A stretch of DNA of 61,744 bases from Candidatus Limnocylindria bacterium (GTDB lineage: Bacteria; Chloroflexota; Limnocylindria; QHBO01): assembly GCA_030146365.1 (NCBI GenBank), contig JASLBU010000234.1:1-61744 (forward strand), in the 5' to 3' direction. Every line of letters begins with the position of its first letter. Position 1 is the stretch's first letter. The notes beneath the pieces are model-generated. The model made no database searches and was not told where the DNA came from. It saw nothing but the letters and a program-made list of their open reading frames with translations. Below, piece after piece: positions 6,417 to 45,447 of the stretch. The translations under genes and the position numbers were made by a program.

Positions 6417-6941
6417 GTGGACCCCGCCGTACGTGCGCCAATCGAGGTCGTCGTTGAGATTCCCTCGGGGAGCCGCAACAAGTACGAGTACGACCACGCG
6501 CGGCACCGGTTCGTGCTCGACCGGATCCTCTACTCGAGCGTGCACTACCCAGCCGACTACGGTTTCATCGAGGGGTCGATGGCCGAGGATGGTGACCCTC
6601 TCGACGTGCTGGTTCTGATTGCCGAGCCGACCTTCCCCGGATGCGTCGTGCGCGCCAGACCCATCGGCGTGCTGGACATGACCGATGACAAGGGACACGA
6701 CTACAAGATCCTCTCCGTCGCCCACGACGACCCGCGTTGGGAGCGCGTGTGGAGCATGGAGGACCTCGCGCCGCATCGACTTCGCGAGATCGAGAACTTC
6801 TTCGAGACCTACAAGACGCTCGAGGGCCGCCTGAGCCGCGTGGAGGGATGGCTCGGCATCGACGACGCCTGGCGGATCATCCAGGCGGCGATCATTGCGG
6901 GTGGTGAACCGCCCATTGCGCAGCCCGGCACCTGGCGCTGA
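6417..6941 (+). CDS. ppa: Inorganic pyrophosphatase (family I)
   Basis: IEVVVEIPSGSRNKYEYD, YPADYGFIEGSMAEDGDPLDVLVL and DDKGHDYKILSV are diagnostic. The GTG at 6417 is in frame and gives a normal ~174-aa length. Confidence 0.9.
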   Translation: MDPAVRAPIEVVVEIPSGSRNKYEYDHARHRFVLDRILYSSVHYPADYGFIEGSMAEDGDPLDVLVLIAEPTFPGCVVRARPIGVLDMTDDKGHDYKILSVAHDDPRWERVWSMEDLAPHRLREIENFFETYKTLEGRLSRVEGWLGIDDAWRIIQAAIIAGGEPPIAQPGTWR

Positions 6942-6953
6942 GCTGCCCGGCGG

Positions 6954-8249
6954 TCACTGGAGGCCGCGATGCAGGAACGCCGTCATCTGGCCGCGTGTGA
7001 CCGGCGCCCGCGGACAGAACCGGTCGCTCGCGCATCCGGCCGTCACGCCCGCCGCCGCGATGCGGTTGATGTCGGCCTCATGCGCCGACGCGTCGTCATC
7101 GCTGAAGAAGTCCCTCGCCTCGGGGGGCAGATCAAGCGCTCGGGCCAGGAAGCTGGCCATCTGTTCGCGCGTCACCATCCCGCGTGGGCAGAAGCGACCC
7201 GGGCCGCAGCCGGCGCTGATGCCGGCCTCCGCAACGCGGTTGATGTCACCCTGGTGCGACGATCCGCTGTCATCACTGAAGTAGTCCCCCGTAGCTGCCG
7301 GAAGCCGCAGCGCGCGGGCAAGGAAGCTGGCCATCTGTTCGCGCGTGACCGGGTTGCTCGTGCAGAACAGGTTCGGAGCGCAGCCGACGGTGATGCCCTC
7401 CTGGTACGCCCAGGCAATGTCGCTCCTGAAGATCGAGGACTCGATGTCGTTGATACAGGTGCGGCCGTTGCCCTCCACGGTCACCGCCGACGACGATCCG
7501 ATGCGCACCCGGGCCCAGGCGCACTGGTTGGTGTCGTCCGATTCCGAGAAGAATCCGTACGGATCCACGGTGGCACGAACGTAGTACGTGCCCGCCGGCA
7601 CGTTGGTGATGTCGACCCACTGCCACGCCAGGTAGTACTCGTACTGGTCGCCCCATCCCACGCTGATCCCCATCCGGTTGCTGAGCGCGCCAGAACTCGT
7701 CCCGCACATCGTGCCGCGGTAGTACGACCCGTTGTAGCCGGGGAGCGATGTGGCCCACGGGTGCGAGTCGAGGAAGCAGAAGCCGACCTTCGCACCGCGG
7801 AAGGTGCCACTGCTCCCCCACATGTCGTATCGCATCATCTCGTTGACGTGCCAGTGGTCGTGCCCGTCACCGGCGTACGATGCGACCGCATCGGTCAGCG
7901 CCTGGTGAACGACCGGTGCCGTGCGCGACGTGCTGTCGTAGAAGACCTGCGTCATCTGCATGGGCGACGAGGTGTCGGGTCGGCTCCCGCGAAGCTCGAA
8001 GTGCCCCTGCCCCACGTTGACCATCATGGCCGTGAAGCGGAGTAACCGGCGACCGTTGACGACCTCGATCCTGAAGTCCCGGAGCGGGGACATGGCGAGG
8101 TCAGGCTGCAGGCCAGCGCTCGCCTGAGCCGGAGACGCGGTAGCGAAGCTGGCCCCGCCCGCGACCATCACGCCGAGGAGGTAGACAAGGACAAGAACGG
8201 GGACGCCACGCCTCGGGGAAGCTCCGCGGCGTGGCCGCCCGGGTCGCAT
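6954..8249 (-). CDS. Secreted lysyl-oxidase-like copper amine oxidase fused to a 3x SLH-like C-terminal module
   Basis: A signal peptide precedes the catalytic domain. GDGHDHWHV is an HxHxH Cu site. GAKVGFCFLDS aligns with animal LOX GHKASFCLEDT, which holds the LTQ lysine. GDQYEYYLAWQWVDITNVPAGTYY aligns with DTY..CQWIDITDV.PGNY, which holds the LTQ tyrosine. The last 164 aa are three SLH-like repeats. Confidence 0.85.
   Translation of the reverse strand: MRPGRPRRGASPRRGVPVLVLVYLLGVMVAGGASFATASPAQASAGLQPDLAMSPLRDFRIEVVNGRRLLRFTAMMVNVGQGHFELRGSRPDTSSPMQMTQVFYDSTSRTAPVVHQALTDAVASYAGDGHDHWHVNEMMRYDMWGSSGTFRGAKVGFCFLDSHPWATSLPGYNGSYYRGTMCGTSSGALSNRMGISVGWGDQYEYYLAWQWVDITNVPAGTYYVRATVDPYGFFSESDDTNQCAWARVRIGSSSAVTVEGNGRTCINDIESSIFRSDIAWAYQEGITVGCAPNLFCTSNPVTREQMASFLARALRLPAATGDYFSDDSGSSHQGDINRVAEAGISAGCGPGRFCPRGMVTREQMASFLARALDLPPEARDFFSDDDASAHEADINRIAAAGVTAGCASDRFCPRAPVTRGQMTAFLHRGLQ
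6957..7448 (-). repeat. 3x SLH-like repeat module (Cys-pair variant) at the C-terminus of the LOX-like protein
   Basis: The repeats contain [36 protein letters not shown] and GCASDRFC..VTRGQMTAFL. The period is about 174 bp. Confidence 0.8.
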
Positions 8250-9931
8250 CAGTCGAGCCCGCGCTTCAAAAAGGCGGCCATCTGACCGCGAGTGACCAGC
8301 GCGCTCGGGCAGTACCGGTCTGTGCCGCAGCCACCGGTGATCCCCGACTTCGCCAACGCGTTGATGGAGTTCTCGTGGAGGTTGCCCTCATCGTCGGTGA
8401 AGTAGTCGGTGGTCGTCGACGACAGCTTCAGGGCCCGTACCAGGAAGCTGGCCATCTGTGCACGGGTGACGTTCGCTCGAGGACAGAAGCGAGCGGTGTC
8501 ACAGCCTCCCGTGACGCCCGCCGCGGCGAGCCGGTTGATGTCGCCCTCGTGCGGGGAGGAGTCGTCATCGGTGAAGAAGTCCCGCGTGGTGCCCGGCAGC
8601 TTCAGCGCACGGGCCAGGAAGCTGGCCATCTGCTCTCGGGTGACCGTCCCGGTGGGACAGAACTTGCCGCCACCGCAGCCGCCCGTGATGCCCGCGTAGT
8701 ACAGCCACAGGATCTCGTTGTAGAAGCTGCTGTTCGTGATGTCGGTGAACGGGGGTGCAACGACCCGATACAGGCGCCCGCCGTGATCGGTCATGTACAC
8801 CTCGCCGTTCTCGGCCTCGCCGAAGGACGTGATGTTCGCACTGGTATCTCGGTGGAAGAGAAGCGAGCTTCCACCGGCTGCGATGGTCCAGATCCGCCCC
8901 GAGCAGTAGTCACCGAGCACGTAGTGCCCGACGAAGTCCTCCTGGATGGAGCCGCGGTACACGTAGCCACCAGTCACGGCACAGTTGCCGTCAGTGTGGG
9001 TGCCGTACTCGGCGATGGGATCGGTGAATACCTTGCCACTGCATGAAATTCCAGGCGATGGGTCAGTGAACGGATGCGTGCCCTCGCGACAGTCCCAGCC
9101 GTAGTTGCGCCCGCCGCTGGCCGGGGGTTCCCGGTTGATCTCTTCCCAGTTGCCCTGACCGACATCCGCGATCCACAGGTGTCCGGTGGAACGGTCGAAG
9201 CTGGCACGCCACGGGTTCCGCAGGCCCATGTCCCAGACCAGGCCGCCCAGGGGGTTGCCGGGTGTCGTATAGCCGCCGTTCAGGTTCGGTGCGATCCGCA
9301 GCACCTTGCCGAGGGTGATGTCCGGATCCTGCCCGTTCTCATCGGGATCGCCACCGCCGCCGCCGTCGCCGGTGAAGATGTACAGGTAGCCATCCGGGCC
9401 GAAGAGCAGTTGGCCGCCGTTGTGGTTCGAGCGGGCGCTGTGCTCGATGACCAGGATGGGATCGTACGTGGACACCGACGCGCTGGTACCGGCGCCATTT
9501 GCCGTGAATTCGGCGATCACGAGGTCGCCGCCGCCGTTCGTGAAATAGGCGAATACCTTGCGGTTCGACTCGAAAGCGGGGTGGAATGCCAGTCCGAGCA
9601 ATCCCCGTTCCCCGCCGGTGGACAGGCCAGCCGATACGCTGCGGATGTCCAGGAAATTGCCCGCCAGGAGGCGATTGTTCTGGACGACCCGGACGGTCCC
9701 GCCCTGCTCCACCACGAATAGGCGGTTCGTTCCGTCGCCCGCGTTCGTGACGCCGATCGGCTGCACGAGCCCGGACACCGTCAGCTGGATATCGACCTGC
9801 CCGCCCGTGAACGCAGCCTCGCCCGCGCGGGAAGCCTGGGGCGCGGGGGTCGTCGGCAGAGCTGCCGCTGGAGCCGTCGTGGTGAGGACCAGGACCAGCG
9901 TCCCGATCATCGCAGTGAGCTTCCGCATCAT
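8249..9931 (-). CDS. Secreted PQQ-dependent (soluble glucose/sorbosone dehydrogenase-type) beta-propeller fused to a 3x SLH-like module
   Basis: The start MMRKLTAMIG is preceded by GAGGAG and followed by a signal peptide. The motifs NRLFVVEQGG.VRVV, ERGLLGLAFHP, NHNGGQLLFGPDGYLYI.TGDGG, GLRNPWR.SFD and LWIADVGQ..WEEIN match this family. The stop overlaps the LOX start by 1 nt (TGATG). Confidence 0.85.
   Translation of the reverse strand: MMRKLTAMIGTLVLVLTTTAPAAALPTTPAPQASRAGEAAFTGGQVDIQLTVSGLVQPIGVTNAGDGTNRLFVVEQGGTVRVVQNNRLLAGNFLDIRSVSAGLSTGGERGLLGLAFHPAFESNRKVFAYFTNGGGDLVIAEFTANGAGTSASVSTYDPILVIEHSARSNHNGGQLLFGPDGYLYIFTGDGGGGGDPDENGQDPDITLGKVLRIAPNLNGGYTTPGNPLGGLVWDMGLRNPWRASFDRSTGHLWIADVGQGNWEEINREPPASGGRNYGWDCREGTHPFTDPSPGISCSGKVFTDPIAEYGTHTDGNCAVTGGYVYRGSIQEDFVGHYVLGDYCSGRIWTIAAGGSSLLFHRDTSANITSFGEAENGEVYMTDHGGRLYRVVAPPFTDITNSSFYNEILWLYYAGITGGCGGGKFCPTGTVTREQMASFLARALKLPGTTRDFFTDDDSSPHEGDINRLAAAGVTGGCDTARFCPRANVTRAQMASFLVRALKLSSTTTDYFTDDEGNLHENSINALAKSGITGGCGTDRYCPSALVTRGQMAAFLKRGLD
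8252..8749 (-). repeat. 3x SLH-like repeat module (Cys-pair variant)
   Basis: The repeats contain [36 protein letters not shown] and GCGTDRYC..VTRGQMAAFL. Confidence 0.8.
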
Positions 9932-9991
9932 GTCTCCTCGCCCGCGTGGTGCTGTGACCAGCGCATTGTGCGCCGTATCGCATCGTCCGAC

Positions 9992-10018
9992 GCCGTACCG
10001 GCGCATCGGCGGTACGGC
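9992..10018 (-). terminator. Candidate stem-loop terminator after the csaB-glycosyltransferase operon
   Basis: A perfect 9-bp stem, GCCGTACCG / CGGTACGGC, encloses a 9-nt loop. It lies in the 97-bp gap between the GT4 stop (10029) and the next gene start (9931). There is no U-tract, so support is weak. Confidence 0.3.
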
Positions 10019-10028
10019 TCCGACCAGC

Positions 10029-11210
10029 TCACTGGGTCCCGGGCACCCGTACGATCCGACCATACGCCTCCAGCAGCGCTGCCGCTGAAGTCGACCAGTT
10101 GTACTCGCGCTCGACGGCACGCCGCCCTTTCAGTCCCATCGCGCCCGCGGTCGCGGGATCGTCGAGAAGGCGACGAACGGCACTCGCGATCTCCGCCGGG
10201 TTCGCGGTGTCGACCACGACCCCCGCGCCCGACCCCACGACCACGTCTCGGACCTGCGGGAAATCGCTGGCGACCACCGGGATTGCGGCCGCCATGTACT
10301 GAAACAGCTTGTTCGGCAGGGAGTAGCGGTAGTTCAGGCAGGACGGGACGATCGGGGAGACGCCGATGTCCGCCGACCTCGCGTACCCCACCACCTCGTC
10401 CGGTGGCACGGGGCCGACGATGTGGACCCGGTCGGCGCTCCCGGTGGCCTCCGCCAGCGCGAGGAGGTCGTCGGCGAGATGCCCCGCACCGAGCAACACG
10501 AGATGGGCGCCATCGATCGATGCCATGGCACGCACCAGGAACTCGATCCCTCGCCCGCCCATCAAGCCGCCCAGGTACAGCACGATGGGCCTGTCCGCCG
10601 GCAATGTCTCGAGGCCGGGACGCCCGCGGAGCTCGAACCGCCTGTCGTCGCCTGGCTGGTCCGGATAGTTCGGGACGAGGTGCACCACGGGGAGGCGGTA
10701 CGTCACGGCCAGGTGCTCCGCGATGGGACGACTCACGGTCAGTGTGGCCCGCGCGCGTGGCACGGCAATCCGCTCGATCACCCCGTAGTACCCGTTCTGT
10801 GCGCGGTGATAGAGCTCCGAGCGCTGTCGTCTCGGGCGATGCAGCCACAAATCGTGCGCGTCATACACGAATGGAGCACCCGTCCAACGAGAGGCAAGCG
10901 CGACCGGGACGAGCGCGTTCGAGTCATGAGCATGGAGCAGATCCGGGCGGAGGCTGCGAAGGATGCGCGCCAGCCGAACCTCATGCGCCACGAACGAGAT
11001 GCCCGGGATGCGAGGCCCTCGGCGCTCGACCCGGCGCACGCTGGTGCCGCTGCGCTCCTCCACAAGCGGGAGCCCCCGGCCCGCATCTGCCACGACGGTG
11101 ACCCGGTACCCGGCGTCGCGCAACGTGGCGGCCTCCTTCTCGACCCGGGAGTCGTGGGTGTACGGGTTGCGGACCAGCATCACGACGTGCACCGCCCGAG
11201 CCTCAGCCAT
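10029..11210 (-). CDS. Glycosyltransferase family 4 (GT-B)
   Basis: The N-terminus VHVVMLVRNPYTHDSRVEKEAATLRDAGYRVTVV matches the Glyco_trans_4-like type. The C-terminal GT1/GT4 core is YRYSLPNKLFQYMAAAIPVVASD. The ATG at 11210 overlaps the upstream stop by 8 nt. Confidence 0.8.
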   Translation of the reverse strand: MAEARAVHVVMLVRNPYTHDSRVEKEAATLRDAGYRVTVVADAGRGLPLVEERSGTSVRRVERRGPRIPGISFVAHEVRLARILRSLRPDLLHAHDSNALVPVALASRWTGAPFVYDAHDLWLHRPRRQRSELYHRAQNGYYGVIERIAVPRARATLTVSRPIAEHLAVTYRLPVVHLVPNYPDQPGDDRRFELRGRPGLETLPADRPIVLYLGGLMGGRGIEFLVRAMASIDGAHLVLLGAGHLADDLLALAEATGSADRVHIVGPVPPDEVVGYARSADIGVSPIVPSCLNYRYSLPNKLFQYMAAAIPVVASDFPQVRDVVVGSGAGVVVDTANPAEIASAVRRLLDDPATAGAMGLKGRRAVEREYNWSTSAAALLEAYGRIVRVPGTQ

Positions 11211-13248
11211 CCGACCGTCCCGAGGCGCCCGCGAGGACCGCCGCCCACGTCTCGGCCATGTCAGCCTGCCAGCGCTCCAGGCTGAACCGCTCGACCGTGT
11301 GCGATATCTCGACGGGGTCGTAGTCCGGGACTCGGGCGAGGGCACCGGCGAAGTCGCCATCCGAAACCAGCGTGCCGTTCACGCCATCCTGGACGATCTC
11401 GACGAGGCCCCCGACCGAGTTCGCCACGACCCAGCGACCGCTGGCGATGGCTTCGACCGCCACCAGCCCGAAGGCCTCGGTCAGCGATGGAACCAACACG
11501 ACGTCGTGGGCTGCCATGAGCGCGGGCACGTCCGCGTACTCGACCTCGCGCAGGCCCGGACCGATCAGGGTGTCGGCCAGGTCGCGGGCTGCCTGGTATC
11601 CCTTGTGGGAGACATTCCCGCCCATGTACAGGACCCGTCGCTCAGTCGGCCGGGCGGTCGGCCGAAAGCGAGAGAGGTCGGTACCCGGAACGATCACGTG
11701 CGGCGCGACGCCGATGGGCCGCAGCAGGTCGGCTGTGTGCTCCGAGTTGGTGATGACAGCGGCGCTGGACTGCACCACGAGGCGGGATAGCGAGCGCAGG
11801 ACCGCCGACTGTTCGACATAGCTGCGCACGTCCCGGCCGTGTGAGTACACGACCAGCGGCACCCGACGGGCTCGCGCGGCGATGAGTCCGACGAGGCCGG
11901 TCGGGAGGATCATGTGCGCCTCGACGCCGTCGATCCCGGCTGACCGACGCAGCGCATCCCAGAGCAGGACCGCATAGAGCAACGGCCGCGGCATCCCCTC
12001 GCGACGCGGCTTCACCACGCGCATCCCGGCCACGCCGAGTGTGCGTTCGCGGACGAACGTGCCGACGCCGGGCCGTTCGGTGGTGGGCCAAAGGCGCGTG
12101 ACCAATGCGATCTGGGGATATTCGGAGGCCCGGCCGGGATAGGCTCGGACGAGGCGCCGCGCGGCATCCGCCCACCGAAACCGATCCTGCAGCGAGCGTA
12201 GATCGGCGCGCACGGCCGCGTTGTGCTTCGGGTCACGCAGCCGCGCGATTCCCTCGTCCAGGGAGTCGTCGTCGACGAACACTTCTCCGATCCGGTGACG
12301 AGCACTGACCGCGGACAACTCGCCCTGGGCACGGAAGACGAGCGGCACGCTGTTCGAGATCGCGATGTACAGGTTGTTCGGCGCGGCGTGAGCGGCATAG
12401 GGATGGTCGGGCTTGAGGGCGTAGTACAGCGCATCAGCCGCGGCGAACAGCTCGGTCGTGTCAGCGACCCAGCCGAGCAGACGCACGTTCGGGATGCGTG
12501 CGGTGGCCTCGCGAAGCGCTGCCTCTGCATCGCCAGAACCCGCGATGAGAACGATGTCCTCCGGATGACGCCTGGCGTGCCGGATGAGGGGGTCGAGATC
12601 GCGCGAGCCGATGAGGCCGCCCGCGTAGACGACACAGAACTGGCCGCCCAACTCGAGCGACGCCCGGGCGCGTTCGCGATCAACGGTTCTCCGTGGGGCA
12701 TCCACCCAGTTGGGGACCGCCACGGAGCGGATTCCTCGAGCCTCGAAGTACGCCCGGCGGTCCTCGCCCGGCGTGATGACGAGATCCGCGAACCGCGGCA
12801 GGTAGCGCTCGGTGACGCGGATGACGGCGACGAGCCAACGCGGGTAGCGGTGAACGCCCATGAGCGCGTGGATCTCGAATGCGTCGTAGACGATTGCCGG
12901 CCGCCGCCCCGGAAGCATGGGTGCCAGTGCCAGTGCCACGATGAGCATGGGCAGGTCGACCGCGTGGATGACGCGCGGCGGGTCCGACCGCATGAGACGA
13001 AGGAATTCCCGCGCGACGCGGAACAGGAAGAAGATCTGGGTCCAGCCCCGGCTGGGACGGCTGAGCACGCGGATGCGATGGACGTGAATCGGCCCGTCCT
13101 CCGCCTCCTCGGGCCGCTCCCCGCTCCGGTCCCAGGCGAGGACCCGTGGCCGATATCCCGCCTCCGCGAGCGCGTAGCCCGTTCGCCTGACCCGCAGATC
13201 GGGGTCATAGGCCTTGGCGAGCAGGAAGTCGACGCGAGCTCCGCTCAT
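11203..13248 (-). CDS. Two-module glycosyltransferase (two GT-B/GT4-like halves in one 681-aa protein)
   Basis: The N-terminal half starts like the neighbouring GT4s (DPDLRVRRTGYALAEAGYRPRVL). The C-terminal half has VVYSHGRDV and the E-x7-E-type motif PSLTEAFGLVAVEAIASGRWVVA. Confidence 0.8.
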   Translation of the reverse strand: MSGARVDFLLAKAYDPDLRVRRTGYALAEAGYRPRVLAWDRSGERPEEAEDGPIHVHRIRVLSRPSRGWTQIFFLFRVAREFLRLMRSDPPRVIHAVDLPMLIVALALAPMLPGRRPAIVYDAFEIHALMGVHRYPRWLVAVIRVTERYLPRFADLVITPGEDRRAYFEARGIRSVAVPNWVDAPRRTVDRERARASLELGGQFCVVYAGGLIGSRDLDPLIRHARRHPEDIVLIAGSGDAEAALREATARIPNVRLLGWVADTTELFAAADALYYALKPDHPYAAHAAPNNLYIAISNSVPLVFRAQGELSAVSARHRIGEVFVDDDSLDEGIARLRDPKHNAAVRADLRSLQDRFRWADAARRLVRAYPGRASEYPQIALVTRLWPTTERPGVGTFVRERTLGVAGMRVVKPRREGMPRPLLYAVLLWDALRRSAGIDGVEAHMILPTGLVGLIAARARRVPLVVYSHGRDVRSYVEQSAVLRSLSRLVVQSSAAVITNSEHTADLLRPIGVAPHVIVPGTDLSRFRPTARPTERRVLYMGGNVSHKGYQAARDLADTLIGPGLREVEYADVPALMAAHDVVLVPSLTEAFGLVAVEAIASGRWVVANSVGGLVEIVQDGVNGTLVSDGDFAGALARVPDYDPVEISHTVERFSLERWQADMAETWAAVLAGASGRSDG

Positions 13249-14342
13249 TGCCCCGTCCCCGCAGTGAGGATCGCCGTGGCGAGGGAGTCTCTCTGCTCAC
13301 GCATGGCGGCCAGGCGACGACCGACCTCGGACCGACGCCCTTCGGACGCCGCCTCCGAGAGGCGCTCCAGCAGAACCGCCGCGCTGATGTCGGGGAGGCC
13401 GACCACCAGGTCGCCCAGGCCTAGCTGCTCCGCTGCGGCACGCACCTTCTCATCGTAGGCAATCGGCACGACGGGCACGCCTGCCAGCGCCGCGAGCAGC
13501 AGACCGTGCAGTCGCACGGTGATGACACCCGACAGCCTGGCGAGTCGCCCCAGCGCGTCAGCCGGGGTAGGACCCAGGGCCGCAATCGCGAGCGGACGCG
13601 ACCCCTCCGCCATGGCTGCAGCTCGCAGCCGCTCCGTGAACCCGACGTCCGCGCCCCCGCCCATGGTGAGCAGGACCGGCGACCGCCCGACGCCCTCGAG
13701 CATCCGGACGGTGTCGAGGATGACCTCGACCAGGCGGGGCTCTATGGGGGCGTCGGCGCGCGTGGGACCGCGGACGATCAGGCCGACGCCGCCGTCGGCC
13801 CGACGGCCGGGCGGGACGTTGAAGACCGATGGGTCGGGGACGACGCGGGACTGCGACCTGCTTCCCAGCACGCTGGCGCTTGCGGAATCACGCACCGTCA
13901 CGACATGAGCGAACCGGGCCCCGATGCGCGCCAACCAGGCGAGCGTGCGCCGGCGAACCGGCCCGACGCCGACGCCGATCCAGGCCACCTTGGCCCCGGC
14001 CAACCTGGCCGCCAGTGTCCAGCCGACATAGCGAGGGATGACTCCGATCCAGTGGTCGTTGAAGATGCCGCCTCCCGTGAGGAGCAGCATGTCGACTCGG
14101 CGCAGCGCGCGCCATGCACGCGGCGTGGGCAGGTGGCGACTGGCGACCACTCGTTCGGCATCCGGGAACGCCGCCACGGTGGCGGGCAATGGCCCGCTGA
14201 AGACGGTCGTCACCTCGACGTCTCGTTCACGGAGCAGCGCCTCGATCCCGGTGAGAATCGCCTCGTCACCGATGTTTCCGAAGCCCTGGAAGCCCACCGT
14301 GGCGACGCGCAGGGGCCGGTGGCGACGCCCCAACGGGCTCAC
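13245..14342 (-). CDS. csaB: Polysaccharide pyruvyl transferase, CsaB family
   Basis: VATVGFQGFGNIGDEAILTGIEALL, DMLLLTGGGIFNDHW, AWIGVGVGPV and the C-terminal VRLHGLLLAALAGVPVVPIAYDEKV match the PS_pyruv_trans/CsaB pattern. The GTG at 14342 forms a GTGA overlap with the epimerase stop. The longer ORF-track N-extension overlaps that gene. Confidence 0.8.
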   Translation of the reverse strand: MSPLGRRHRPLRVATVGFQGFGNIGDEAILTGIEALLRERDVEVTTVFSGPLPATVAAFPDAERVVASRHLPTPRAWRALRRVDMLLLTGGGIFNDHWIGVIPRYVGWTLAARLAGAKVAWIGVGVGPVRRRTLAWLARIGARFAHVVTVRDSASASVLGSRSQSRVVPDPSVFNVPPGRRADGGVGLIVRGPTRADAPIEPRLVEVILDTVRMLEGVGRSPVLLTMGGGADVGFTERLRAAAMAEGSRPLAIAALGPTPADALGRLARLSGVITVRLHGLLLAALAGVPVVPIAYDEKVRAAAEQLGLGDLVVGLPDISAAVLLERLSEAASEGRRSEVGRRLAAMREQRDSLATAILTAGTGQ

Positions 14343-15460
14343 GCGACGCGCGCCTCCCGGGCGAGGATGTCCACGATTCGGTCGGCGGCGTGTCCGTCGC
14401 CGTAGATGTCCCTGCCCGCTCGAGCCATGGCATCGAGCTCCGCCGGCTCGTCGAGAAGCCGGGTGACGGTCGTTCGAACCAGCTCCGCATCGGTTCCGAC
14501 GATGCGGACGGCACCGGCGTCCACCCCCTCGGGCCGCTCCGTGGTAGTCCTCGTGACGAGAACCGGCGTGCCCAGCGTCGGTGCCTCCTCCTGCACCCCG
14601 CCGGAGTCCGAGACCGCCAGCCGAGCGCCGGCGAGCAGCGACAGGAAGGTGGGATACGGCAGGGCGTCGACGACCATCGCTCGCTGCTCGTCCCCGAGGA
14701 TCGCCTGGACGGGGCCGCGTGCGATCGGGTTGGGATGCGTTGCGAACACCAGGCGCAGGTCCTCGTTCGCCGCAAGCACGCCGCGCAGGGCAGTCGCCAC
14801 GGAGGCGATGCCGCCGTCCCATGATTCCCGCCGATGGGCGGTGGCAAGCAGGTAGGGCTTGTCGCCGATGAACGTCGCAAACGGCTCCCCAAGGTCCGAT
14901 CGACCGGGATTGATGTAACCCAGCGCGTCGACCACCGTGTTGCCCACGACGTGGACGCCGGCGGCCACCCCCTCCCGACGCAGGTTGTCGGCGGATCGCT
15001 CGGTCGGTGCGAAGTGCCAGGTGGCGATCGCCGATGCCACCCGTCGGTTCATCTCCTCCGGAAACGGGTGTCCCATGTCGTGGGAGCGCAGGCCCGCCTC
15101 GACGTGCCCGACCGGGGCGCCGTGGTGGAAGGCGGCGAGGACCGAGCCGAGCACGCTGGTCGTGTCTCCCTGCACGACGACGGCGCGCGGTCGTCGCTCC
15201 CCCAGCAGCTCCCCGACGCGCCGCACCGCCCGCGCCAGAAGTTCATCAAGGGTCTGGCCAGGTCGCATGAGCCCGAGATCAGCGTCCGGCTGGATCGCGA
15301 ACAGCTCGAGCACGTCGCGCACCATGGCGCCGTGCTGGCCCGTCGTCACGACGATGTGCGGAAGATCGGCGCGGCGCATGGCGATCACGACGGGCGCCAG
15401 CTTTATCGCCTCGGGGCGGGTGCCGAGCAGCACGGCAACGGGCGCGACGGGGGTCGGCAT
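14339..15460 (-). CDS. wecB: UDP-N-acetylglucosamine 2-epimerase (non-hydrolysing; MnaA/WecB)
   Basis: VAVLLGTRPEAIKLAPV, VVTTGQH, VVVQGDTTSVL and GHVEAGLRS......PFPEEMNRR are diagnostic. Confidence 0.9.
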   Translation of the reverse strand: MPTPVAPVAVLLGTRPEAIKLAPVVIAMRRADLPHIVVTTGQHGAMVRDVLELFAIQPDADLGLMRPGQTLDELLARAVRRVGELLGERRPRAVVVQGDTTSVLGSVLAAFHHGAPVGHVEAGLRSHDMGHPFPEEMNRRVASAIATWHFAPTERSADNLRREGVAAGVHVVGNTVVDALGYINPGRSDLGEPFATFIGDKPYLLATAHRRESWDGGIASVATALRGVLAANEDLRLVFATHPNPIARGPVQAILGDEQRAMVVDALPYPTFLSLLAGARLAVSDSGGVQEEAPTLGTPVLVTRTTTERPEGVDAGAVRIVGTDAELVRTTVTRLLDEPAELDAMARAGRDIYGDGHAADRIVDILAREARVA

Positions 15461-15468
15461 GGTTGGCG

Positions 15469-15474
15469 AGTATA
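15469..15474 (-). promoter_or_regulatory. Candidate -10 box TATACT for a leaderless wecB-csaB operon transcript
   Basis: The hexamer ends 8 nt upstream of the ATG at 15460 and there is no SD. Confidence 0.35.
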
Positions 15475-15543
15475 GGGAGCACCACGACTCACGGACCGCG
15501 GGTCCCCCCGACCGGTGACGGGCCGTACGACCGCGGTCGGCAG

Positions 15544-15549
15544 TATTCT
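15544..15549 (+). promoter_or_regulatory. Candidate -10 box TATTCT for a leaderless transcript of the Wzy-like gene
   Basis: The hexamer ends 6 nt upstream of the ATG at 15556 and there is no SD. It is divergent from the wecB promoter. Confidence 0.35.
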
Positions 15550-15555
15550 GTCGCC

Positions 15556-17106
15556 ATGTCGACCATGGAGGGGCATCGACGGAGTGCACGGAACGTCATC
15601 CCGAGGCCGCTGCCTGCGCGGATGATCAGCCCTCGTGTCCTCGCTGTCATCGCCGGGTACCTGCTCCTGCTCGGAACGGTGGCCATCGTGCTGTTCTTCC
15701 CGAACGGCTGGCTTCCGGTCATCCTCGCTGGCGGCGCCACCCTGCTGCTGTCCTTCGATCGCAAGCTCGGCCCACTCCCGGCGGGGCTGTTCGTCATGCT
15801 GGTCCTGCCGGTCGGCCGCGGCAGCGAAGTCGGCTTGCCGCGGATCGTCGGCGACGTCCCGATTCGTGCGCACGACATCGTCCCGTTGGTGGCGGTGGCC
15901 CTGACGCTGCCAGCGATCGCGCGTCGCCTGCGGACCCCCTCGATGATCCCGTGGTCGTCCTTCGTCCCGGTGGCGGTGTTCTCGGGTGTCGGCCTGCTGG
16001 CGCTCGCCATCGGCTTCGCGGGCGACCAGACCATGCGCGACATCGTGCGTGACGCTCGGTGGTGGGCCTTCTACGGGATCGGCTTGGTTGCCCTTCTGGC
16101 CGGCACGCGGCGGCCGGCCATCATGCGGGCGGTGATCTGGGGGCTGACTATCTATGCCGCCGTCCTGCTCATCGCCCTGCTGATGCCGATGTTCAACGGT
16201 GGGCTCAAGTACGGGGCCTACGCGTACGACCCGCGCCTCCGCCTGCATTACGGACAGGCGGTCTTTCTGCTCGTGGCCGTGGCCATGGTCGTGGACCGGT
16301 TCGTTCGTCGCCCGAGCATTTCGCTCGGTGCGACCATTGCGCTCCTCGCTGCGGGAGTCGGCGTCACGCTCACCCGTACGCTCCTTGCCGGCGTGCTGGG
16401 GGTTGGTGTGATGGCTGCGGTGTGGGTCGCGCTCCAGGTAGCTCGGGGCGGAGCGCAAACCGAAATCCGGACGCTTGCCCTGCGGGCCGCGCTGGCGGTG
16501 CTTGCCATCGGCGTCGGGCTGGGGGCAGGCTTTGGCGCCTACCAGGCCGGGATCGGGATCTGGACGCCCGCCTGGGCGTACTCGAGCGATGGCGCCTCCG
16601 GTCCGTCCGGTGCTCCATCGGACACCCGTCCGGTGCGCCCGTCGATCGGGCGGGTGTTCGAAGACACCGAGAACGCCGGTTTCGGGGCACAGGCGGGAGG
16701 ACGGTTCACCTCGTACGGGCTGGCGTTCGCCCAGGCCGCGGAGTCGCCCATCTTCGGCCATGGCATCGGTCAGCCCGCCCGCATCCCCTGGGCCTGGGGT
16801 GGATTTCGCGCCTACACCGCGGGGAGCCAGCCCGGCGTCGACAATGCCTATCTCACCGTCGGGCTCAAGGCGGGCGCGTTGGGCATCGCGGCCTTCGCGG
16901 TCATGGTGCTGTGGCCATTGCGGCAGCTCATGGCATCAGGGCCGCGGCGGATGCGAGGCTGGTTCGTGCCCGCGTGGCTTGCGATCCTGGGCCTGATGCT
17001 GCTGCAGTCCTTCGCAGTCAGCGGCTACGCACCCTTCGTTCTCGCCACGCTCCTCGTGCTACCTGGCCTGCGGTCCGGTCGGGCCCGCAGCACCGTCCCT
17101 CGCTGA
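15556..17106 (+). CDS. Polytopic membrane protein, O-antigen ligase/polymerase (Wzy_C)-like
   Basis: There are many TM helices and a large extracytoplasmic loop. GHGIGQP and VDNAYLTVGLKAGALGIAAFAVMV resemble the O-antigen ligase-like family. Confidence 0.65.
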   Translation: MSTMEGHRRSARNVIPRPLPARMISPRVLAVIAGYLLLLGTVAIVLFFPNGWLPVILAGGATLLLSFDRKLGPLPAGLFVMLVLPVGRGSEVGLPRIVGDVPIRAHDIVPLVAVALTLPAIARRLRTPSMIPWSSFVPVAVFSGVGLLALAIGFAGDQTMRDIVRDARWWAFYGIGLVALLAGTRRPAIMRAVIWGLTIYAAVLLIALLMPMFNGGLKYGAYAYDPRLRLHYGQAVFLLVAVAMVVDRFVRRPSISLGATIALLAAGVGVTLTRTLLAGVLGVGVMAAVWVALQVARGGAQTEIRTLALRAALAVLAIGVGLGAGFGAYQAGIGIWTPAWAYSSDGASGPSGAPSDTRPVRPSIGRVFEDTENAGFGAQAGGRFTSYGLAFAQAAESPIFGHGIGQPARIPWAWGGFRAYTAGSQPGVDNAYLTVGLKAGALGIAAFAVMVLWPLRQLMASGPRRMRGWFVPAWLAILGLMLLQSFAVSGYAPFVLATLLVLPGLRSGRARSTVPR

Positions 17107-18606
17107 GACTGCGATCGGTTCTCGAGCCCACCCGAAGCCTCGCAGGGGTGGAGCCAAGAGTGAGGCGATCCCGATCACCATCCACACCACGACGCCGGGG
17201 AAGTTCCCTTCGAAGATCATCTCGGTCATGTTGTTGACCGTGACGACCGAGATCGCGGCGGCTGTCCCCGCGAGCAGCGTCCGCCGGCGCGGATCTCCTT
17301 CGGCGAGGGCGGCACGCACGAATCGGAGCCACAGCAGGAAGATGGCGGCCACGAAGACCAGACCGCCGATCACTCCCACCTCGCCGAAGAGATGCAGCCA
17401 GAAGTTGTGGATGGTCCGGAAGCCGTAGAGGCCGGCGCCGTACTCCTCGTACACCGGAGACGGGACGATGGCCGAGGCAGCCCCGCCATATCGGCCCGGT
17501 CCCACGCCGAGCCAGGGGTTGTCGAGGACGATCGGTATCCCCTCGCGGATGAACCGCATTCGCAGGTCACGCCGCTCGTAGACCTCGTCCAGCCGGTCGA
17601 TGGTGGAGTCGATGATGCTCGGCGTCCCGGTCTCCGGGAAGTAGATCGGCAGGTCCGCCTCGGCGACGAGCAGGTTGCGCGGCATGACGATCGTCACCAC
17701 CCAGGCAACGCCGACGGCGATGATCAGCGTCCGCAGCGCTCGCCAATCGAGCACAAGCAGGCTCACGACCAGGCCGACCACGACGGCCAACCACGCTCCT
17801 CGGGAGAACGTCAGCAGCAACGCTACGCAAAAGACGACCAGGGTGCCGAACGCCATCCAGCGACCCCGGTCGGTGACCAAGTGGCGCGATGCGAAGAGAG
17901 GAAACGGCAGAGTGAATCCGACCACGGCCGCGACCATGTTCGGGTTGCCGAGAAAGGAGGTGATCCTGCCTCCCTCGCCGAAGCGCCCCGCGAACGAGGC
18001 GAGCCCGAGCAGGTTGGGGTGCAGGACCACCTGCAGGATGCCGGTCACCGCCGCGAATAGCGCCACGGCCACGACCGCCGTGATGGCAGCTGTCGCCTGT
18101 CGCTGCGTGGTCGGCACCATGCGCGCGATGAAATACACGGCGACTGCGTCGACCGTCATGACGATTCCGAGCAGCGCCACCCGCGGCGGGGTGGCATTCA
18201 CCAGCGCCGATACGATCGCGATCACCACGAAGAGCGACATGAACCAGAGGAGCGGGTCGCGAAGAGCGCTCCAGAAGGTGCCACGCCGGACCGCCGCTAC
18301 CGTGACGACGGTGCCTGTGACCGCCAGCATCGGCTCGCTGGCTCCGATCGGGCCGATCTCGATGCTCGCCGGCAGCACGGTGCGAAGGAGCACTGTGTCG
18401 AACAGCACGAAGAGGGCGGAGACCACCAGGGTCGGAAGAGGCCAGCGATGGGCCGAGTACGCGAGGAGTGCCAGGGCGGCGGCGGCGACGATGGCGAACA
18501 CCGGCCACGCGACCCATGCACCCGCCACGGTGGCCGCGAAGAGTGCGATGGCGCCGAGCGCGACATGAGAGGGGTGCGGGTCGAAGCGATGGACCGAGCT
18601 CGTCAT
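17059..18606 (-). CDS. O-antigen ligase / polymerase family membrane protein (Wzy_C)
   Basis: TFSRGAWLAVVVGLVV is the SRGAW core of Wzy_C. GVGPGRYG and HNFWLHLFGEVGVIGGLVFV also fit. The 3' end overlaps the convergent Wzy-like gene by 48 nt. Confidence 0.75.
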   Translation of the reverse strand: MTSSVHRFDPHPSHVALGAIALFAATVAGAWVAWPVFAIVAAAALALLAYSAHRWPLPTLVVSALFVLFDTVLLRTVLPASIEIGPIGASEPMLAVTGTVVTVAAVRRGTFWSALRDPLLWFMSLFVVIAIVSALVNATPPRVALLGIVMTVDAVAVYFIARMVPTTQRQATAAITAVVAVALFAAVTGILQVVLHPNLLGLASFAGRFGEGGRITSFLGNPNMVAAVVGFTLPFPLFASRHLVTDRGRWMAFGTLVVFCVALLLTFSRGAWLAVVVGLVVSLLVLDWRALRTLIIAVGVAWVVTIVMPRNLLVAEADLPIYFPETGTPSIIDSTIDRLDEVYERRDLRMRFIREGIPIVLDNPWLGVGPGRYGGAASAIVPSPVYEEYGAGLYGFRTIHNFWLHLFGEVGVIGGLVFVAAIFLLWLRFVRAALAEGDPRRRTLLAGTAAAISVVTVNNMTEMIFEGNFPGVVVWMVIGIASLLAPPLRGFGWAREPIAVSARDGAAGPTGPQAR

Positions 18607-18729
18607 GGCGGTGCGGGACTCTGCTCTTTCACGGTCCGTCCGCCAGGGACATAGGCTCGAATTCCCTGATCGACTCGGGCTTCGCGGTATGCCGAACCGG
18701 ACCACGGCCATTGTAGAGAACCCGGTGGA

Positions 18730-24915: not shown

Positions 24916-24917
24916 CA

Positions 24918-25640
24918 GTGGGGACCTGCATCATCATCCAGGCGCGCATGGGCTCGACGCGACTTCCGGGAAAGGTCGCGATGGACGTGGCGGGGCTTCC
25001 CATGATCGGCCGCGTCCTGGAGCGGGCGGCTCGTGTCCAGGGCGTCGATGACATCGTCGTGGCGATCCCCGACCTGGTGGAGGACGACGGTCTGTCGGAC
25101 CTCGTCCACAGCCTGGGACACCGTGTCGTGCGGGGTCCGTCGGCCGACGTCCTGGAGCGGTACCTGATCGCGGCAGAGGCCACCGGCGCGGACGTGATCG
25201 TGCGGCTCACCGCCGACTGCCCGCTGCTCTCCCCCTCCGTGTCCGCGCAGGTGATCGAGCGTTTCCGGACCGCTCGTGTCGACTACTGCTCGAATACCCT
25301 CCAGCGCAGCTGGCCGCGCGGGCTCGACACGGAGGTCGTCGACATCCGAGCACTCCGGATCGCCGGCCAGGAGGCGGTCAGTGCGTCCGATCGTGAGCAC
25401 GTGACGCCGTTCGTGTGGCGGCAGCCCGAGCGTTTTCGCCTGGCACCGGTATCGACGCTGCCCGACCGCTCCGACCTGCGGTGGACCGTGGACACCGCAG
25501 ACGACCTGGAGATGGTGAGACGCGTTTTCGCCGGCATCGGTGGCGACGACTTCGACCTGCCGGAGATCCTGTGCCTGCTCGAGCGCGACCCGTCTCTCGC
25601 TCTGGTGAATCGAGACGTTCGCCAGAAGCCGCTCGCCTGA
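24918..25640 (+). CDS. pseF: Cytidylyltransferase (SpsF/PseF-type; CMP-pseudaminic acid synthetase candidate)
   Basis: IIIQARMGSTRLPGKV and RLTADCPL are hallmarks of the SpsF-type CTP transferase_3 family. The gene sits inside the pse gene order. Confidence 0.7.
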   Translation: MGTCIIIQARMGSTRLPGKVAMDVAGLPMIGRVLERAARVQGVDDIVVAIPDLVEDDGLSDLVHSLGHRVVRGPSADVLERYLIAAEATGADVIVRLTADCPLLSPSVSAQVIERFRTARVDYCSNTLQRSWPRGLDTEVVDIRALRIAGQEAVSASDREHVTPFVWRQPERFRLAPVSTLPDRSDLRWTVDTADDLEMVRRVFAGIGGDDFDLPEILCLLERDPSLALVNRDVRQKPLA

Positions 25641-27067: not shown

Positions 27068-27074
27068 TCGCCTG

Positions 27075-45443: not shown

Positions 45444-45447
45444 CGGA

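Follow-up and report, generated by a model that had tools for sequence, protein, structure and literature searches.

Anchoring of SLH proteins to wall polysaccharide that carries pyruvate is a major route of protein display and outer-membrane tethering in Terrabacteria. The SLH ligand that has been characterised, 4,6-Pyr-beta-D-ManNAc, is made by a pathway that is, to our knowledge, understood only in few Firmicutes. Bacillus anthracis depends on CsaB-mediated pyruvylation for the retention of many SLH proteins (PMC7759979; model in PMC6030368). The SCWP pathway of Paenibacillus alvei comprises MnaA, TagO, TagA, and CsaB, with SpaA and SlhA as SLH proteins (PMC6030368, PMC10435577, PMC6081394), and pyruvate transfer by CsaB can be assayed by phosphate release or by LC-MS/NMR (PMC6030368, PMC8615578). 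A broad survey reports that SLH and CsaB were lost in the clade of Chloroflexi, CPR, and Dormibacteraeota, and the name Limnocylindria does not occur in its examined supplement (10.1101/2021.05.31.446380).

Here, we analyzed a 61,744-nt stretch of a Candidatus Limnocylindria genome (the window), the host lineage of which has no cultured representative; all evidence on the operon described below is computational. On balance, we favor the interpretation that the operon wecB-csaB-GT4a/b-GT4c builds lipid-linked repeat units for a cell-wall polysaccharide with ketal-pyruvylated ManNAc, on which SLH enzymes dock. The operon and its surroundings on the minus strand are as follows.

15469 to 15475, minus strand: CTATACT, -10-like box of an inferred promoter, located 8 nt ahead of the ATG of wecB
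14339 to 15460, minus strand: wecB/mnaA, non-hydrolysing UDP-GlcNAc 2-epimerase (PF02350, TIGR00236)
13245 to 14342, minus strand: csaB-like polysaccharide ketal-pyruvyltransferase (PF04230; best NCBIfam model TIGR03609)
12214 to 13248, minus strand: GT4a, N-terminal module of a 681-aa double glycosyltransferase (Pfam GT4 N-domain)
11203 to 12213, minus strand: GT4b, C-terminal module of the double glycosyltransferase (canonical GT4 domains)
10029 to 11210, minus strand: GT4c, single-module GT4 of 393 aa (Pfam GT4 domains)

Sequence and Pfam matches agree with the four minus-strand genes of the initial annotation, and the overlaps of GTGA, ATGA, and 8 nt read exactly as described there. At the wecB/csaB junction (...cgcGTGAgcc...), the wecB stop at 14341-14339 overlaps the csaB GTG start at 14342, and at the next junction (...caATGAgcg...) the csaB stop at 13247-13245 overlaps the start of the double glycosyltransferase at 13248. 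The third junction (...gATGGCTGAgg...) places the GT4c ATG at 11210 ahead of the double-glycosyltransferase stop at 11205-11203. Overlapping junctions are also kept in relatives. In high-GC operons, however, overlaps of 4 nt are an ordinary feature, so that the coupling, overstated in the initial annotation, is in itself unremarkable. CTATACT occurs a single time in the whole 61.7-kb window, and CCTATACT is kept in the related loci L001, L010, and L005, where it likewise lies 7-9 nt ahead of the start codon. No Shine-Dalgarno sequence was found before wecB. It is possible that CTATACT is the wecB promoter and gives rise to a leaderless transcript.

Both enzymes at the head of the operon match the families proposed for them. 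The wecB product matches Epimerase_2 (PF02350, E 2.3e-96) and passes the cut-off of TIGR00236 (386.8 vs. 210.15 bits), an equivalog score that identifies it as the non-hydrolysing UDP-GlcNAc 2-epimerase type predicted to make UDP-ManNAc. A second wecB is present in the window, inside a second glycan cluster. The csaB product, encoded by a frame of coding-type composition (GC1/2/3 = 0.76/0.55/0.84), matches PF04230 PS_pyruv_trans with 94.7 bits against a gathering cut-off of 25.3 (E 1.2e-26) and covers nearly the complete domain (profile positions 1-279 of 280). TIGR03609 S_layer_CsaB is its best NCBIfam match with 127.1 bits and is matched at full length (2-290 of 301), with WcaK as the second-best curated model (21 bits). 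The identification as CsaB proper was thus only partly upheld, as the equivalog cut-off of 213.1 bits is not reached and the acceptor-site tyrosine discussed below is absent.

Residues R151 (VRD), R277-x-H279, and K299 of the csaB product are invariant among 22 clade members, and K299 lies exactly 20 residues past H279, which is the same His-to-Lys spacing as in P. alvei CsaB. On the basis of motif and spacing rather than an alignment, they are the counterparts of R148, R306/H308, and K328 in P. alvei, which bind PEP and are experimentally critical (PMC10435577). Family match and residues together assign the csaB product to the PS_pyruv_trans family with a conserved predicted PEP site. The acceptor site reads GFQGF in the window and SGYYGF in P. 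alvei CsaB, the N-terminus of which was taken from a primer (PMC6030368, Table 1). Phe16 of P. alvei corresponds to the conserved Phe21 of the window protein, whereas Tyr14 corresponds to Gln19, a residue found in at least 90% of clade members; the Y14A mutant of P. alvei CsaB is inactive. The csaB product is modelled by AF2 (pLDDT 93) with a GT-B-like fold, and its Foldseek matches include Pvg1p (5ax7, E 1.8e-6). The acceptor would be lipid-linked ManNAc.

The window encodes six SLH cargo proteins, the first two directly downstream of the operon.

8249 to 9931, minus strand: cargo 1, secreted glucose/sorbosone-dehydrogenase-fold (GSDH) protein with three C-terminal SLH repeats (PF07995, 3 x PF00395)
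6954 to 8249, minus strand: cargo 2, lysyl-oxidase-domain (LOX) protein with three SLH repeats (PF01186, PF00395)
40797 to 43148, plus strand: cargo 3, C5-epimerase-like domain with three SLH repeats (PF06662, PF00395)
54736 to 57414, minus strand: cargo 4, subtilase S8 with Big_5 and SLH repeats
58721 to 59767, minus strand: cargo 5, CAP-domain protein with SLH repeats
59840 to 61726, minus strand: cargo 6, GH18 chitinase-like domain with SLH repeats

Pfam thus confirms the two downstream genes, previously noted as SLH-like, as GSDH-SLH and LOX-SLH genes, and the cargo carries bona fide triple SLH domains. N-terminal signal peptides were seen on the cargo; cargo 1 has a signal-peptide-like N-terminus and a GAGGAGA Shine-Dalgarno sequence ahead of its ATG, and the start of cargo 2 overlaps the stop of cargo 1. 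SLH-Gly29 (GIIxG) and SLH-Arg43 (TRAE position) are each present in all 18 repeats of the six proteins, while SLH-Trp13 is confined to repeat 1 in every protein (6/6), leaving one fully equipped groove per trimer. In SpaA and Sap, Gly29 and Arg43 bind the pyruvate, and Trp13 is likewise a criterion (PMC6081394). In addition, the repeats of the window share an invariant C-x6-C pair and have TRxQ instead of the canonical TRAE. The adjacency of operon and cargo is weakened as an argument because SLH genes are so frequent in the window (6 of ~50 genes).

The operon is part of a much larger Wzx/Wzy locus, which also encodes a flippase, two Wzy-like proteins, and the whole pseudaminic-acid (Pse) pathway. 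Further genes for glycan assembly in the window are listed here.

116 to 1267: PMT_2-type glycosyltransferase
15463 to 17106, plus strand: WzyA, polytopic Wzy/WaaL-like membrane protein (weak Wzy_C match, E 7e-7, 29.6 bits, under the cut-off of 31.7)
17059 to 18711, minus strand: WzyB, polytopic Wzy_C polymerase/ligase-like protein (PF04932, E 1.2e-18), kept in L001 and L002
18730 to 19914, minus strand: further group 1 glycosyltransferase (PF13692, PF00534), kept in L001-L003
19655 to 21334, plus strand: Wzx-type flippase (PF01943, PF13440)
38096 to 39619, plus strand: LCP (LytR-CpsA-Psr) glycopolymer-to-peptidoglycan ligase (PF03816, TIGR00350)
39634 to 40587, minus strand: WecA/TagO-type polyprenyl-phosphate HexNAc-1-phosphate transferase, candidate initiator (PF00953)

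WzyA has multiple hydrophobic segments, is divergent from wecB, and probably starts at 15556 or later; it is kept and divergent from the epimerase gene in L001, L002, and L007, and in L011 its place is taken by an unannotated divergent gene. The presence of an LCP and a TagO/WecA-type gene in the window, as described initially, was corroborated by Pfam. The LCP protein exceeds both cut-offs (PF03816, 91.8 vs. 24.6 bits, E 6e-26; TIGR00350, 81.5 vs. 62.3 bits). In two relatives, L009 and L010, an LCP gene adjoins the csaB operon. The polytopic WecA/TagO-type protein matches PF00953 with 130.7 vs. 27 bits (E 6e-38); it scores 135.8 bits with TIGR02380 wecA, missing the cut-off of 326, and lower, 67 bits, with the MraY model. 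This enzyme, encoded 24 kb away, may serve the csaB operon.

We compared the window with 12 related neighborhoods from uncultured Chloroflexota/Limnocylindria (CsaB identity 41-73%), a set in which synteny is partly inherited and not independent evidence. Epimerase_2 and csaB genes lie in one same-strand gene run in 11 of these 12 relatives and overlap directly in all seven loci with a CsaB identity of at least 49%. The GSDH-SLH and LOX-SLH cargo genes are found no more than 9 kb from the csaB homologue in eight relatives, with the cargo 1 orthologue adjoining the operon in 8/12 and cargo 2 kept in L001, L003, L005, L007, L010, and L012, while no SLH gene was found within 9 kb in the other four. 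The cargo of L007 is located on the opposite side of the operon, which indicates that the linkage outlasted rearrangement. The flippase gene is inside the csaB operon itself in L006, L007, L009, and L013, and the sugar modules around the core vary between relatives. L007, a distant relative of the window, has the gene order Epimerase_2 - flippase - Glyco_tran_WecG (GT26, E about 1e-56) - csaB, with a 4-nt overlap of TagA and csaB. It thereby encodes the canonical MnaA/TagA/CsaB trio of P. alvei (PMC6030368).

L007 is the sole carrier of TagA, as no TagA/GT26 was found in the stretches examined of the other 11 relatives. The reported absence of a GT26 TagA/WecG enzyme from the window was reproduced: no GC3-supported ORF matched PF03808, and a six-frame tblastn search of the window with TagA (WecG) of L007 retrieved nothing (best E = 8). 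According to Pfam, the 681-aa protein consists of two complete GT4 modules and the 393-aa protein of one, and the earlier suggestion that a GT4 fills the TagA role can be narrowed to one likely module, GT4a. Its orthologue is constant across the 12 relatives, located directly 3' of csaB or fused as N-half of a double glycosyltransferase. GT4a shares 51-55% identity with the stand-alone GT4 directly after csaB in L006-L009, exceeding the conservation of CsaB itself (41-46%). No sequence relative of GT4a was found in the PDB, and its GT4 N-domain was matched with the C-domain under threshold (25.6 vs. 27 bits). The closest folds to its AF2 model (pLDDT 92) are the retaining GT4 enzymes SPS, MshA, and BshA (TM 0.75-0.78). 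The E-x7-E motif defines GT4; GT4a lacks it and has APNNLYxAIA in its place. GT4b carries the motif (TEAFGLVAVEA), is MshA/BshA-like by sequence, and has a gene of its own in L003 and L012. GT4c carries LPNKLFQYMA and is 64-80% identical in L001-L003; in L010 and L012 a GT4 lies at the corresponding position.

GT4 enzymes are retaining, so that ManNAc added by a GT4 would be alpha-linked, unlike the beta-linked ligand, which counts against an SLH-ligand function. We tentatively propose, as an idea we would not bet on, that TagA was displaced in Limnocylindria by the divergent retaining-type GT4a, that the ligand is an alpha-linked pyruvyl-ManNAc made via Wzx/Wzy, and that both the SLH repeats, with their invariant Cys pair and a Trp confined to repeat 1, and the acceptor site of CsaB, where Gln stands in place of Tyr14, co-evolved with it. 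If true, SLH proteins would be anchored by a second route that does without TagA, and this in a phylum from which the system has been reported lost.

The favored pathway would operate at the cytoplasmic face of the membrane, where the lipid-linked repeat would be assembled. Briefly, WecB, of an enzyme type shown by its equivalog score, would convert UDP-GlcNAc to UDP-ManNAc, and a polyprenyl-phosphate sugar-phosphate transferase, possibly the distant WecA-type enzyme, would prime undecaprenyl phosphate. ManNAc might be added by GT4a, a retaining-type GT-B enzyme and constant partner of the pyruvyltransferase, and further sugars by GT4b, GT4c, and neighboring glycosyltransferases. The CsaB-like enzyme, as its family and PEP site suggest, would transfer pyruvate from PEP, presumably to the lipid-linked ManNAc. 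By analogy to B. anthracis and P. alvei, Wzx would flip the unit, the two Wzy/WaaL-like proteins would polymerise or handle it, and the LCP enzyme would join the polymer to peptidoglycan. The C-terminal SLH trimers of secreted enzymes, including the six encoded in the window with two directly downstream of the operon, could then dock non-covalently on the pyruvylated sugar via their conserved Arg/Gly pocket.

The Wzx/Wzy locus and the second wecB/glycan cluster leave room for a pyruvylated polysaccharide unrelated to SLH anchoring. The operon could serve a Wzx/Wzy-dependent exopolysaccharide, capsule, or surface heteropolysaccharide with pyruvate ketals, such as colanic acid, succinoglycan, or xanthan, and SLH genes could be neighbors by ancestry or abundance. 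We consider this rather unlikely, although PS_pyruv_trans is a broad family, the CsaB cut-off is missed, Tyr14 is replaced, TagA is absent from the window, and Wzx, two Wzy-like proteins, extra glycosyltransferases, and a complete Pse pathway surround the operon. Differing sugar modules are moreover typical of O-antigen and capsule loci, L006 and L008 have, instead of the WecA/TagO-type enzyme, a Bac_transf initiator typical of exopolysaccharide and capsule loci, and 4/12 relatives lack a nearby SLH gene. Yet among curated pyruvyltransferase models CsaB alone scores meaningfully (127 vs. 21 bits for WcaK), the coupling of epimerase and csaB points to ManNAc, the specific CsaB substrate, TagA overlaps csaB in L007, and the SLH cargo pair is still linked after rearrangement. 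SLH proteins with intact pyruvate-binding residues also need a pyruvylated ligand, and the csaB product is the sole pyruvyltransferase seen in the window.

Glycosylation of S-layer proteins or exoproteins, with a Wzy/WaaL-like protein as O-oligosaccharyltransferase and pseudaminic acid as cap, is a far less plausible purpose. S-layer proteins of other bacteria can carry O-glycans capped with Pse/Leg, and the window combines an adjacent Pse pathway, a PMT_2-type glycosyltransferase, and two Wzy_C/WaaL-clan proteins. One of these weakly matches TIGR03097 (putative O-glycosylation ligase); this match, however, reaches 25.7 bits, far under the cut-off of 188, Pse genes are not kept with the core and are missing in L007, L010, and L012, and LCP ligases are encoded nearby, both in the window and in L009 and L010. 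The combination of epimerase, CsaB, and SLH proteins would also be left unexplained. A hydrolysing NeuC/LegG-type epimerase that feeds the adjacent NeuB-family synthase for sialic or legionaminic acid would render the csaB coupling uninformative on ManNAc, and the Epimerase_2 gene indeed shares its locus with such a synthase, an aminotransferase, and a cytidylyltransferase. This identity is effectively refuted by the TIGR00236 score above its cut-off and a score of 59.3 bits, far under the cut-off of 235.9, with the NeuC_NnaA model TIGR03568. In agreement, the nonulosonate genes are PseB, PseC, PseG, and PseI equivalogs, the Pse pathway requires no 2-epimerase, and epimerase-csaB adjacency survives in relatives without Pse genes. 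The initial proposal of an operon for the SLH ligand is partly supported, by gene identities, synteny, the TagA-csaB overlap in L007, and the PEP and SLH residues, and is weakened by the missed CsaB cut-off, the lost Tyr14, and generic Wzx/Wzy surroundings.

If our favored interpretation is correct, the locus puts SLH anchoring in Limnocylindria, an abundant, uncultured class of soil and freshwater, and provides a rationale for the surface display of oxidoreductases, proteases, and chitinase-like enzymes in these bacteria. It also delimits a compact conserved core of epimerase, flippase, pyruvyltransferase, GT4a, and Wzy, and nominates GT4a, an unnamed glycosyltransferase family, as the working transferase of CsaB where TagA is absent. 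As the components are soluble or standard membrane enzymes, this could be tested directly by the in-vitro reconstitution established for P. alvei.

The system is well known in Bacillus and is here probably present in a lineage reported to be without it, with no TagA nearby. The window shares with P. alvei the non-hydrolysing epimerase, a PF04230 enzyme in which PEP-binding residues and their spacing are the same, a candidate initiator of the WecA/TagO type, cargo with SLH trimers that have the Gly29/Arg43 pocket, and, as judged from gene layout, co-transcription of csaB with glycan-assembly genes near cargo genes. Co-location of csaB, SLH cargo, and tagO, initially regarded as unusual, is instead the classic P. 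alvei arrangement (PMC6030368). In contrast to P. alvei, mnaA is inside the csaB operon rather than elsewhere, tagO is 24 kb from the operon rather than within it, TagA is absent and the divergent retaining-type GT4a is the constant partner, CsaB is shorter (365 vs. 402 aa), and a Wzx/Wzy-type route with several extra glycosyltransferases is present. The B. anthracis SCWP system (TagO, TagA1/2, Sap/EA1/BSL proteins) is paralleled by two Wzy/WaaL-clan proteins (WpaA/WpaB in B. anthracis), a flippase, LCP ligases, and many different enzymes on SLH trimers. The window belongs to another phylum, has no GT26 and a different glycosyltransferase set, and contains an adjacent pseudaminic-acid module. 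Whereas OmpM/SlpA tethering in Thermus, Deinococcus, Cyanobacteria, and Negativicutes relies on porins with N-terminal SLH domains (10.1101/2021.05.31.446380), the window encodes exoenzymes with C-terminal SLH trimers. The PF04230 enzymes of exopolysaccharides and capsules (WcaK, EpsO, GumL, PssM, Pvg1p) share family, GT-B-like fold, and PEP dependence with the window enzyme but act on Gal, Glc, or Man and, unlike the window enzyme, have no known link to a UDP-GlcNAc 2-epimerase or SLH cargo.

The four minus-strand genes that the initial annotation had read as an operon for synthesis of an SLH ligand were confirmed at their coordinates by Pfam domain matches, and the two models it had named as a check, PS_pyruv_trans and Epimerase_2, both found their genes:

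15460-14339, minus strand: Epimerase_2 (wecB), Pfam E 2.3e-96
14342-13245, minus strand: PS_pyruv_trans (PF04230; csaB), 94.7 bits (gathering score 25.3), E 1.2e-26
13248-11203, minus strand: double glycosyltransferase of 681 aa with two complete GT4 modules (Pfam), GT4a (N-terminal, 13248-12214) and GT4b (C-terminal, 12213-11203)
11210-10029, minus strand: single GT4 (GT4c; Pfam)

The GTGA, ATGA and 8-nt overlaps described at the junctions are present in the sequence as read, and overlapping operon junctions were found again in relatives; operons of high G+C content routinely have 4-nt overlaps, and the G+C content of the window is ~69%. An ORF antisense to csaB, preferred by a crude GC3 gene caller, was ruled out by Pfam, homologues and frame composition (the csaB frame has a coding-type GC3 of 0.84), and the minus-strand csaB is therefore the real gene. 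A CTATACT box lies 8 nt 5' of the wecB ATG, occurs only once within the window and is kept 7-9 nt before the start codon in three relatives (L001, L010 and L005). No Shine-Dalgarno sequence was found before wecB, and we infer that the box may be the -10 element of a leaderless transcript. The first cargo gene downstream has a strong GAGGAGA ribosome-binding site and follows GT4c after a 97-nt gap, in which the hairpin was no better than in shuffles (z = -0.9) and no convincing terminator was found. Scanning 6700-15900 for promoter and terminator consensus sequences gave nothing exceeding chance, and an Rfam scan of the window matched solely a tRNA, with no riboswitch or leader.

Typing of the epimerase matters because the full pseudaminic acid (Pse) pathway 7 kb away could have implied NeuC or LegG. 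The protein scores 386.8 bits against TIGR00236 (cut-off 210) and 59.3 bits against the hydrolysing NeuC model (cut-off 235.9). By these equivalog scores it is of the non-hydrolysing WecB/MnaA type, and a NeuC/LegG enzyme feeding a NeuB-family synthase was ruled out.

For the pyruvyltransferase, the best curated model is S_layer_CsaB (TIGR03609), a full-length match of 127.1 bits that stays below the equivalog cut-off of 213.1, as compared to 21 bits for the runner-up WcaK. Alignment of 22 clade members shows R151 (VRD), R277-x-H279 and K299 to be invariant, with the lysine exactly 20 residues after the histidine; by motif and spacing they correspond to R148, R306/H308 and K328 of P. alvei CsaB, which are experimentally critical PEP-binding residues (PMC10435577). 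The acceptor-site motif reads GFQGF as compared to SGYYGF in P. alvei CsaB (the latter taken from a cloning primer, PMC6030368), so that Phe16 is kept, and Tyr14, whose mutation to Ala inactivates the P. alvei enzyme, is replaced by a Gln that hardly varies. AlphaFold predicts, at a pLDDT of 93, a GT-B-like fold, for which Foldseek returned generic GT-B matches, with the yeast pyruvyltransferase Pvg1p at rank 50, a result that is consistent and not discriminating; a PDB sequence search found no relative. Neither the score nor the position equivalent to Tyr14 places the protein within the CsaB equivalog. Membership was established for PF04230, WecB, SLH and LCP, and the window lacks a GT26 component.

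The nearest loci and proteins all derive from uncultured Chloroflexota, several of them named Candidatus Limnocylindria, and the G+C content of the window agrees with the 68.9% reported for this class (PMC10608941). We compared 12 related neighbourhoods (L001-L003, L005-L013; CsaB identity 41-73%). Epimerase_2 and the pyruvyltransferase share one same-strand gene run in 11 of them, and the two genes directly overlap in each of the seven loci whose CsaB identity is 49% or higher; a flippase gene sits between them in L006, L007, L009 and L013. The same GSDH-SLH and LOX-SLH cargo proteins as in the window (glucose/sorbosone-dehydrogenase fold and lysyl oxidase) are encoded at most 9 kb away in 8/12 neighbourhoods, and in L007 they lie on the opposite side, so linkage to the core has outlived a rearrangement. 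The order in L007 is Epimerase_2, flippase, Glyco_tran_WecG (PF03808, E 1.3e-56) and csaB with a 4-nt overlap, i.e., the canonical MnaA/TagA/CsaB trio that was reconstituted for P. alvei (PMC6030368). A six-frame search with the L007 TagA gave a best E of 8 in the window and nothing in the stretches examined from other relatives. The sugar-nucleotide genes beside the core vary: the window, L001 and L005 have Pse genes, L006 has another nonulosonate set (legionaminic-type by gene content), and L007 and L010 carry NDP-sugar genes of other kinds. This pattern suggests a conserved core with a variable side-sugar decoration. In L003, an apparent epimerase-pyruvyltransferase fusion ORF of 725 aa (8873-11050) was rejected, as the epimerase C-terminus (residues 305-367) continues out of frame at 9786-9974; the frameshift near 9800 probably reflects either an indel from long-read assembly or a pseudogene.

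The initial annotation had proposed that one of the GT4 enzymes fills the role of TagA, and this can be narrowed to GT4a as a predicted function. The GT4 directly after csaB in L006-L009 is orthologous to GT4a (51-55% identity), whose conservation exceeds that of CsaB at equal distances. L003 and L012 encode GT4a and GT4b as two genes, and the 681-aa protein is thus a fusion of two independent transferases. Relatives that carry the double GT4 include L001 (CAVPGY010000001), L005, L010 and L011. In structural superposition, the GT4a model (pLDDT 92) comes closest to sucrose-phosphate synthase, MshA and BshA (TM 0.75-0.78). These are retaining GT4 enzymes, and several of them use UDP-HexNAc donors; a PDB sequence search with GT4a found no relative. 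The E-x7-E motif is present in GT4b and absent from GT4a, which has the family-specific invariant motifs AWDR, HAVDLPML, VYDAFE and PDHPYA..APNNLY. The GT4a homologues, each with 50% identity or more, have generic names only. At least 14 of them agree exactly with CsaB matches in the length of their longest contig, a soft indication that both genes lie on the same contigs. In L006, no glycosyltransferase other than GT4a is present in the core beside the epimerase. GT4a would therefore be the best candidate ManNAc transferase where TagA is absent. A simple rule, by which loci with TagA have a single GT4 and loci without it a double GT4, was discarded because a single GT4a occurs without TagA in the stretches examined of L006, L008, L009 and L013. 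GT4 enzymes retain configuration, so the product of GT4a would be alpha-linked, whereas that of TagA is beta-ManNAc. No precedent for a ManNAc transferase of family GT4 was found in the literature accessible to the search.

Six proteins of the window carry three SLH repeats each (Pfam), including the two "SLH-like" genes directly downstream of the operon, whose repeats are bona fide:

9931-8249, minus strand: GSDH-fold SLH protein
8249-6954, minus strand: lysyl-oxidase-like SLH protein
40797-43148, plus strand: C5-epimerase-like SLH protein
54736-57414, minus strand: subtilase (S8) SLH protein
58721-59767, minus strand: CAP-domain SLH protein
59840-61726, minus strand: GH18 SLH protein

The trimer is C-terminal in five; in the C5-epimerase-like protein it is followed by a ~110-aa Pro/Thr/Ser/Ala-rich tail. 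N-termini of those cargo proteins checked are signal-peptide-like. The longest ORF of the S8 protease begins with ~60 residues unlike a signal peptide, and its true start is probably further downstream. We scored the 18 repeats against the SpaA/Sap determinants (PMC6081394). SLH-Gly29 and SLH-Arg43 are kept in every repeat, and the domains are therefore predicted to be equipped for pyruvate-ketal binding. The TRAE motif reads T-R-x-Q/E (TREQ, TRGQ or TRAQ). Trp13, which stacks on the ligand, is confined to repeat 1 in every cargo protein, repeats 2 and 3 having a conserved His-x3-(I/V)-N in this region, and each trimer probably has one fully formed groove. Directly after Gly29, all 18 repeats have an invariant Cys pair (G-C-x6-C-P), probably a disulfide-stapled loop.

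The LCP gene (38096-39619) and the WecA/TagO-type transferase gene (39634-40587) are both real. In the stretch 40587-40610, a TATGAT box precedes the ATG of the latter by 8 nt, in the same leaderless-type geometry as for wecB, and a tRNA-Pro (TGG; 40614-40690, minus strand) lies immediately upstream of the gene. A monotopic Bac_transf (WbaP/PglC-type) initiator adjoins the csaB core in L006 (2-712, minus strand) and L008 (17615-18130) as compared to the WecA-type of the window, so the reducing-end sugar of the polymer may differ between lineages. Beside the LCP gene, and overlapping it head to head, is a GGDEF diguanylate cyclase ORF (36387-38129, minus strand), which may link c-di-GMP to wall-polymer attachment. 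The Pse module (22746-28133, plus strand, with 21121-22806) comprises PseB, PseC, a CTP_transf_3 cytidylyltransferase, a PseG-GNAT (PseH-like) fusion and PseI, and is swapped for other sugar genes in some relatives. The scores of PseB, PseC and PseI (525, 463 and 472 bits) exceed the respective equivalog cut-offs, and that of the PseG match in the fusion falls just short (134.4 bits, cut-off 153.55). A DUF6716 putative glycosyltransferase, which may be the Pse transferase, precedes these genes. Further glycan genes form a second cluster:

43153-54676, minus strand: second glycan cluster, with its own Wzx at 53207-54676
51472-52629, minus strand: second non-hydrolysing wecB (275 bits)

It also encodes a hexapeptide acetyltransferase, a DegT aminotransferase, a UDP-GlcNAc 3-dehydrogenase-like GFO oxidoreductase and a UDP-ManNAc-dehydrogenase-like enzyme, with GT2, GT4, MazG and a triple-PPIase protein interspersed, and resembles a UDP-ManNAc3NAcA (WbpABEDI-type) pathway. 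A PMT_2/PIG-V-like polytopic mannosyltransferase at the window edge (116-1267, plus strand) could indicate mannosylation of protein or lipid-linked glycan in the same organism.

We favour, with moderate confidence, a pyruvylated-ManNAc wall polymer that would serve as the SLH ligand. WecB, by its family, would make UDP-ManNAc; GT4a would install ManNAc on a lipid-linked primer, and GT4b, GT4c and neighbouring glycosyltransferases would add further sugars. The CsaB-like enzyme, whose family and PEP site are recognizable and whose acceptor is predicted, would then add pyruvate from PEP at the lipid-linked stage. Wzx would flip the unit, two Wzy/WaaL-clan proteins would handle it, the LCP enzyme would presumably ligate the polymer to peptidoglycan, and the SLH exoenzymes would dock on it. 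The main alternative is that the locus makes a Wzx/Wzy exopolysaccharide that is pyruvylated and has nothing to do with SLH anchoring. In its favour are a CsaB score below the cut-off, the change of Tyr14 to Gln, the lack of TagA and the resemblance of the locus to an O-antigen cluster. We regard this alternative as rather improbable. Action of the clade on ManNAc is argued for most strongly by the TagA-csaB arrangement of L007.

SLH domains and CsaB were reported as lost in the monoderm clade Chloroflexi/CPR/Dormibacteraeota by an outer-membrane-tethering survey (10.1101/2021.05.31.446380). The accessible portion of its supplement contains Chloroflexi genomes and no Limnocylindria or Ellin6529 name, and Limnocylindria were probably not sampled. 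A literature search on SLH, S-layers or CsaB in Limnocylindria found nothing specific. Judged from sequence, the system of the window would work like the SLH/pyruvylated secondary cell-wall polymer systems of P. alvei and B. anthracis, and its two Wzy/WaaL-clan proteins have a parallel in B. anthracis WpaA/WpaB. The clustering of csaB with genes for cargo and initiation, which the initial annotation had called unusual, is the classic pattern of P. alvei, in which csaB-tagA-tagO are co-transcribed and adjoin spaA and slhA (PMC6030368), and is therefore not unusual. New here are the lineage, the epimerase within the csaB operon, GT4a as constant partner in place of TagA, and the Wzx/Wzy context.
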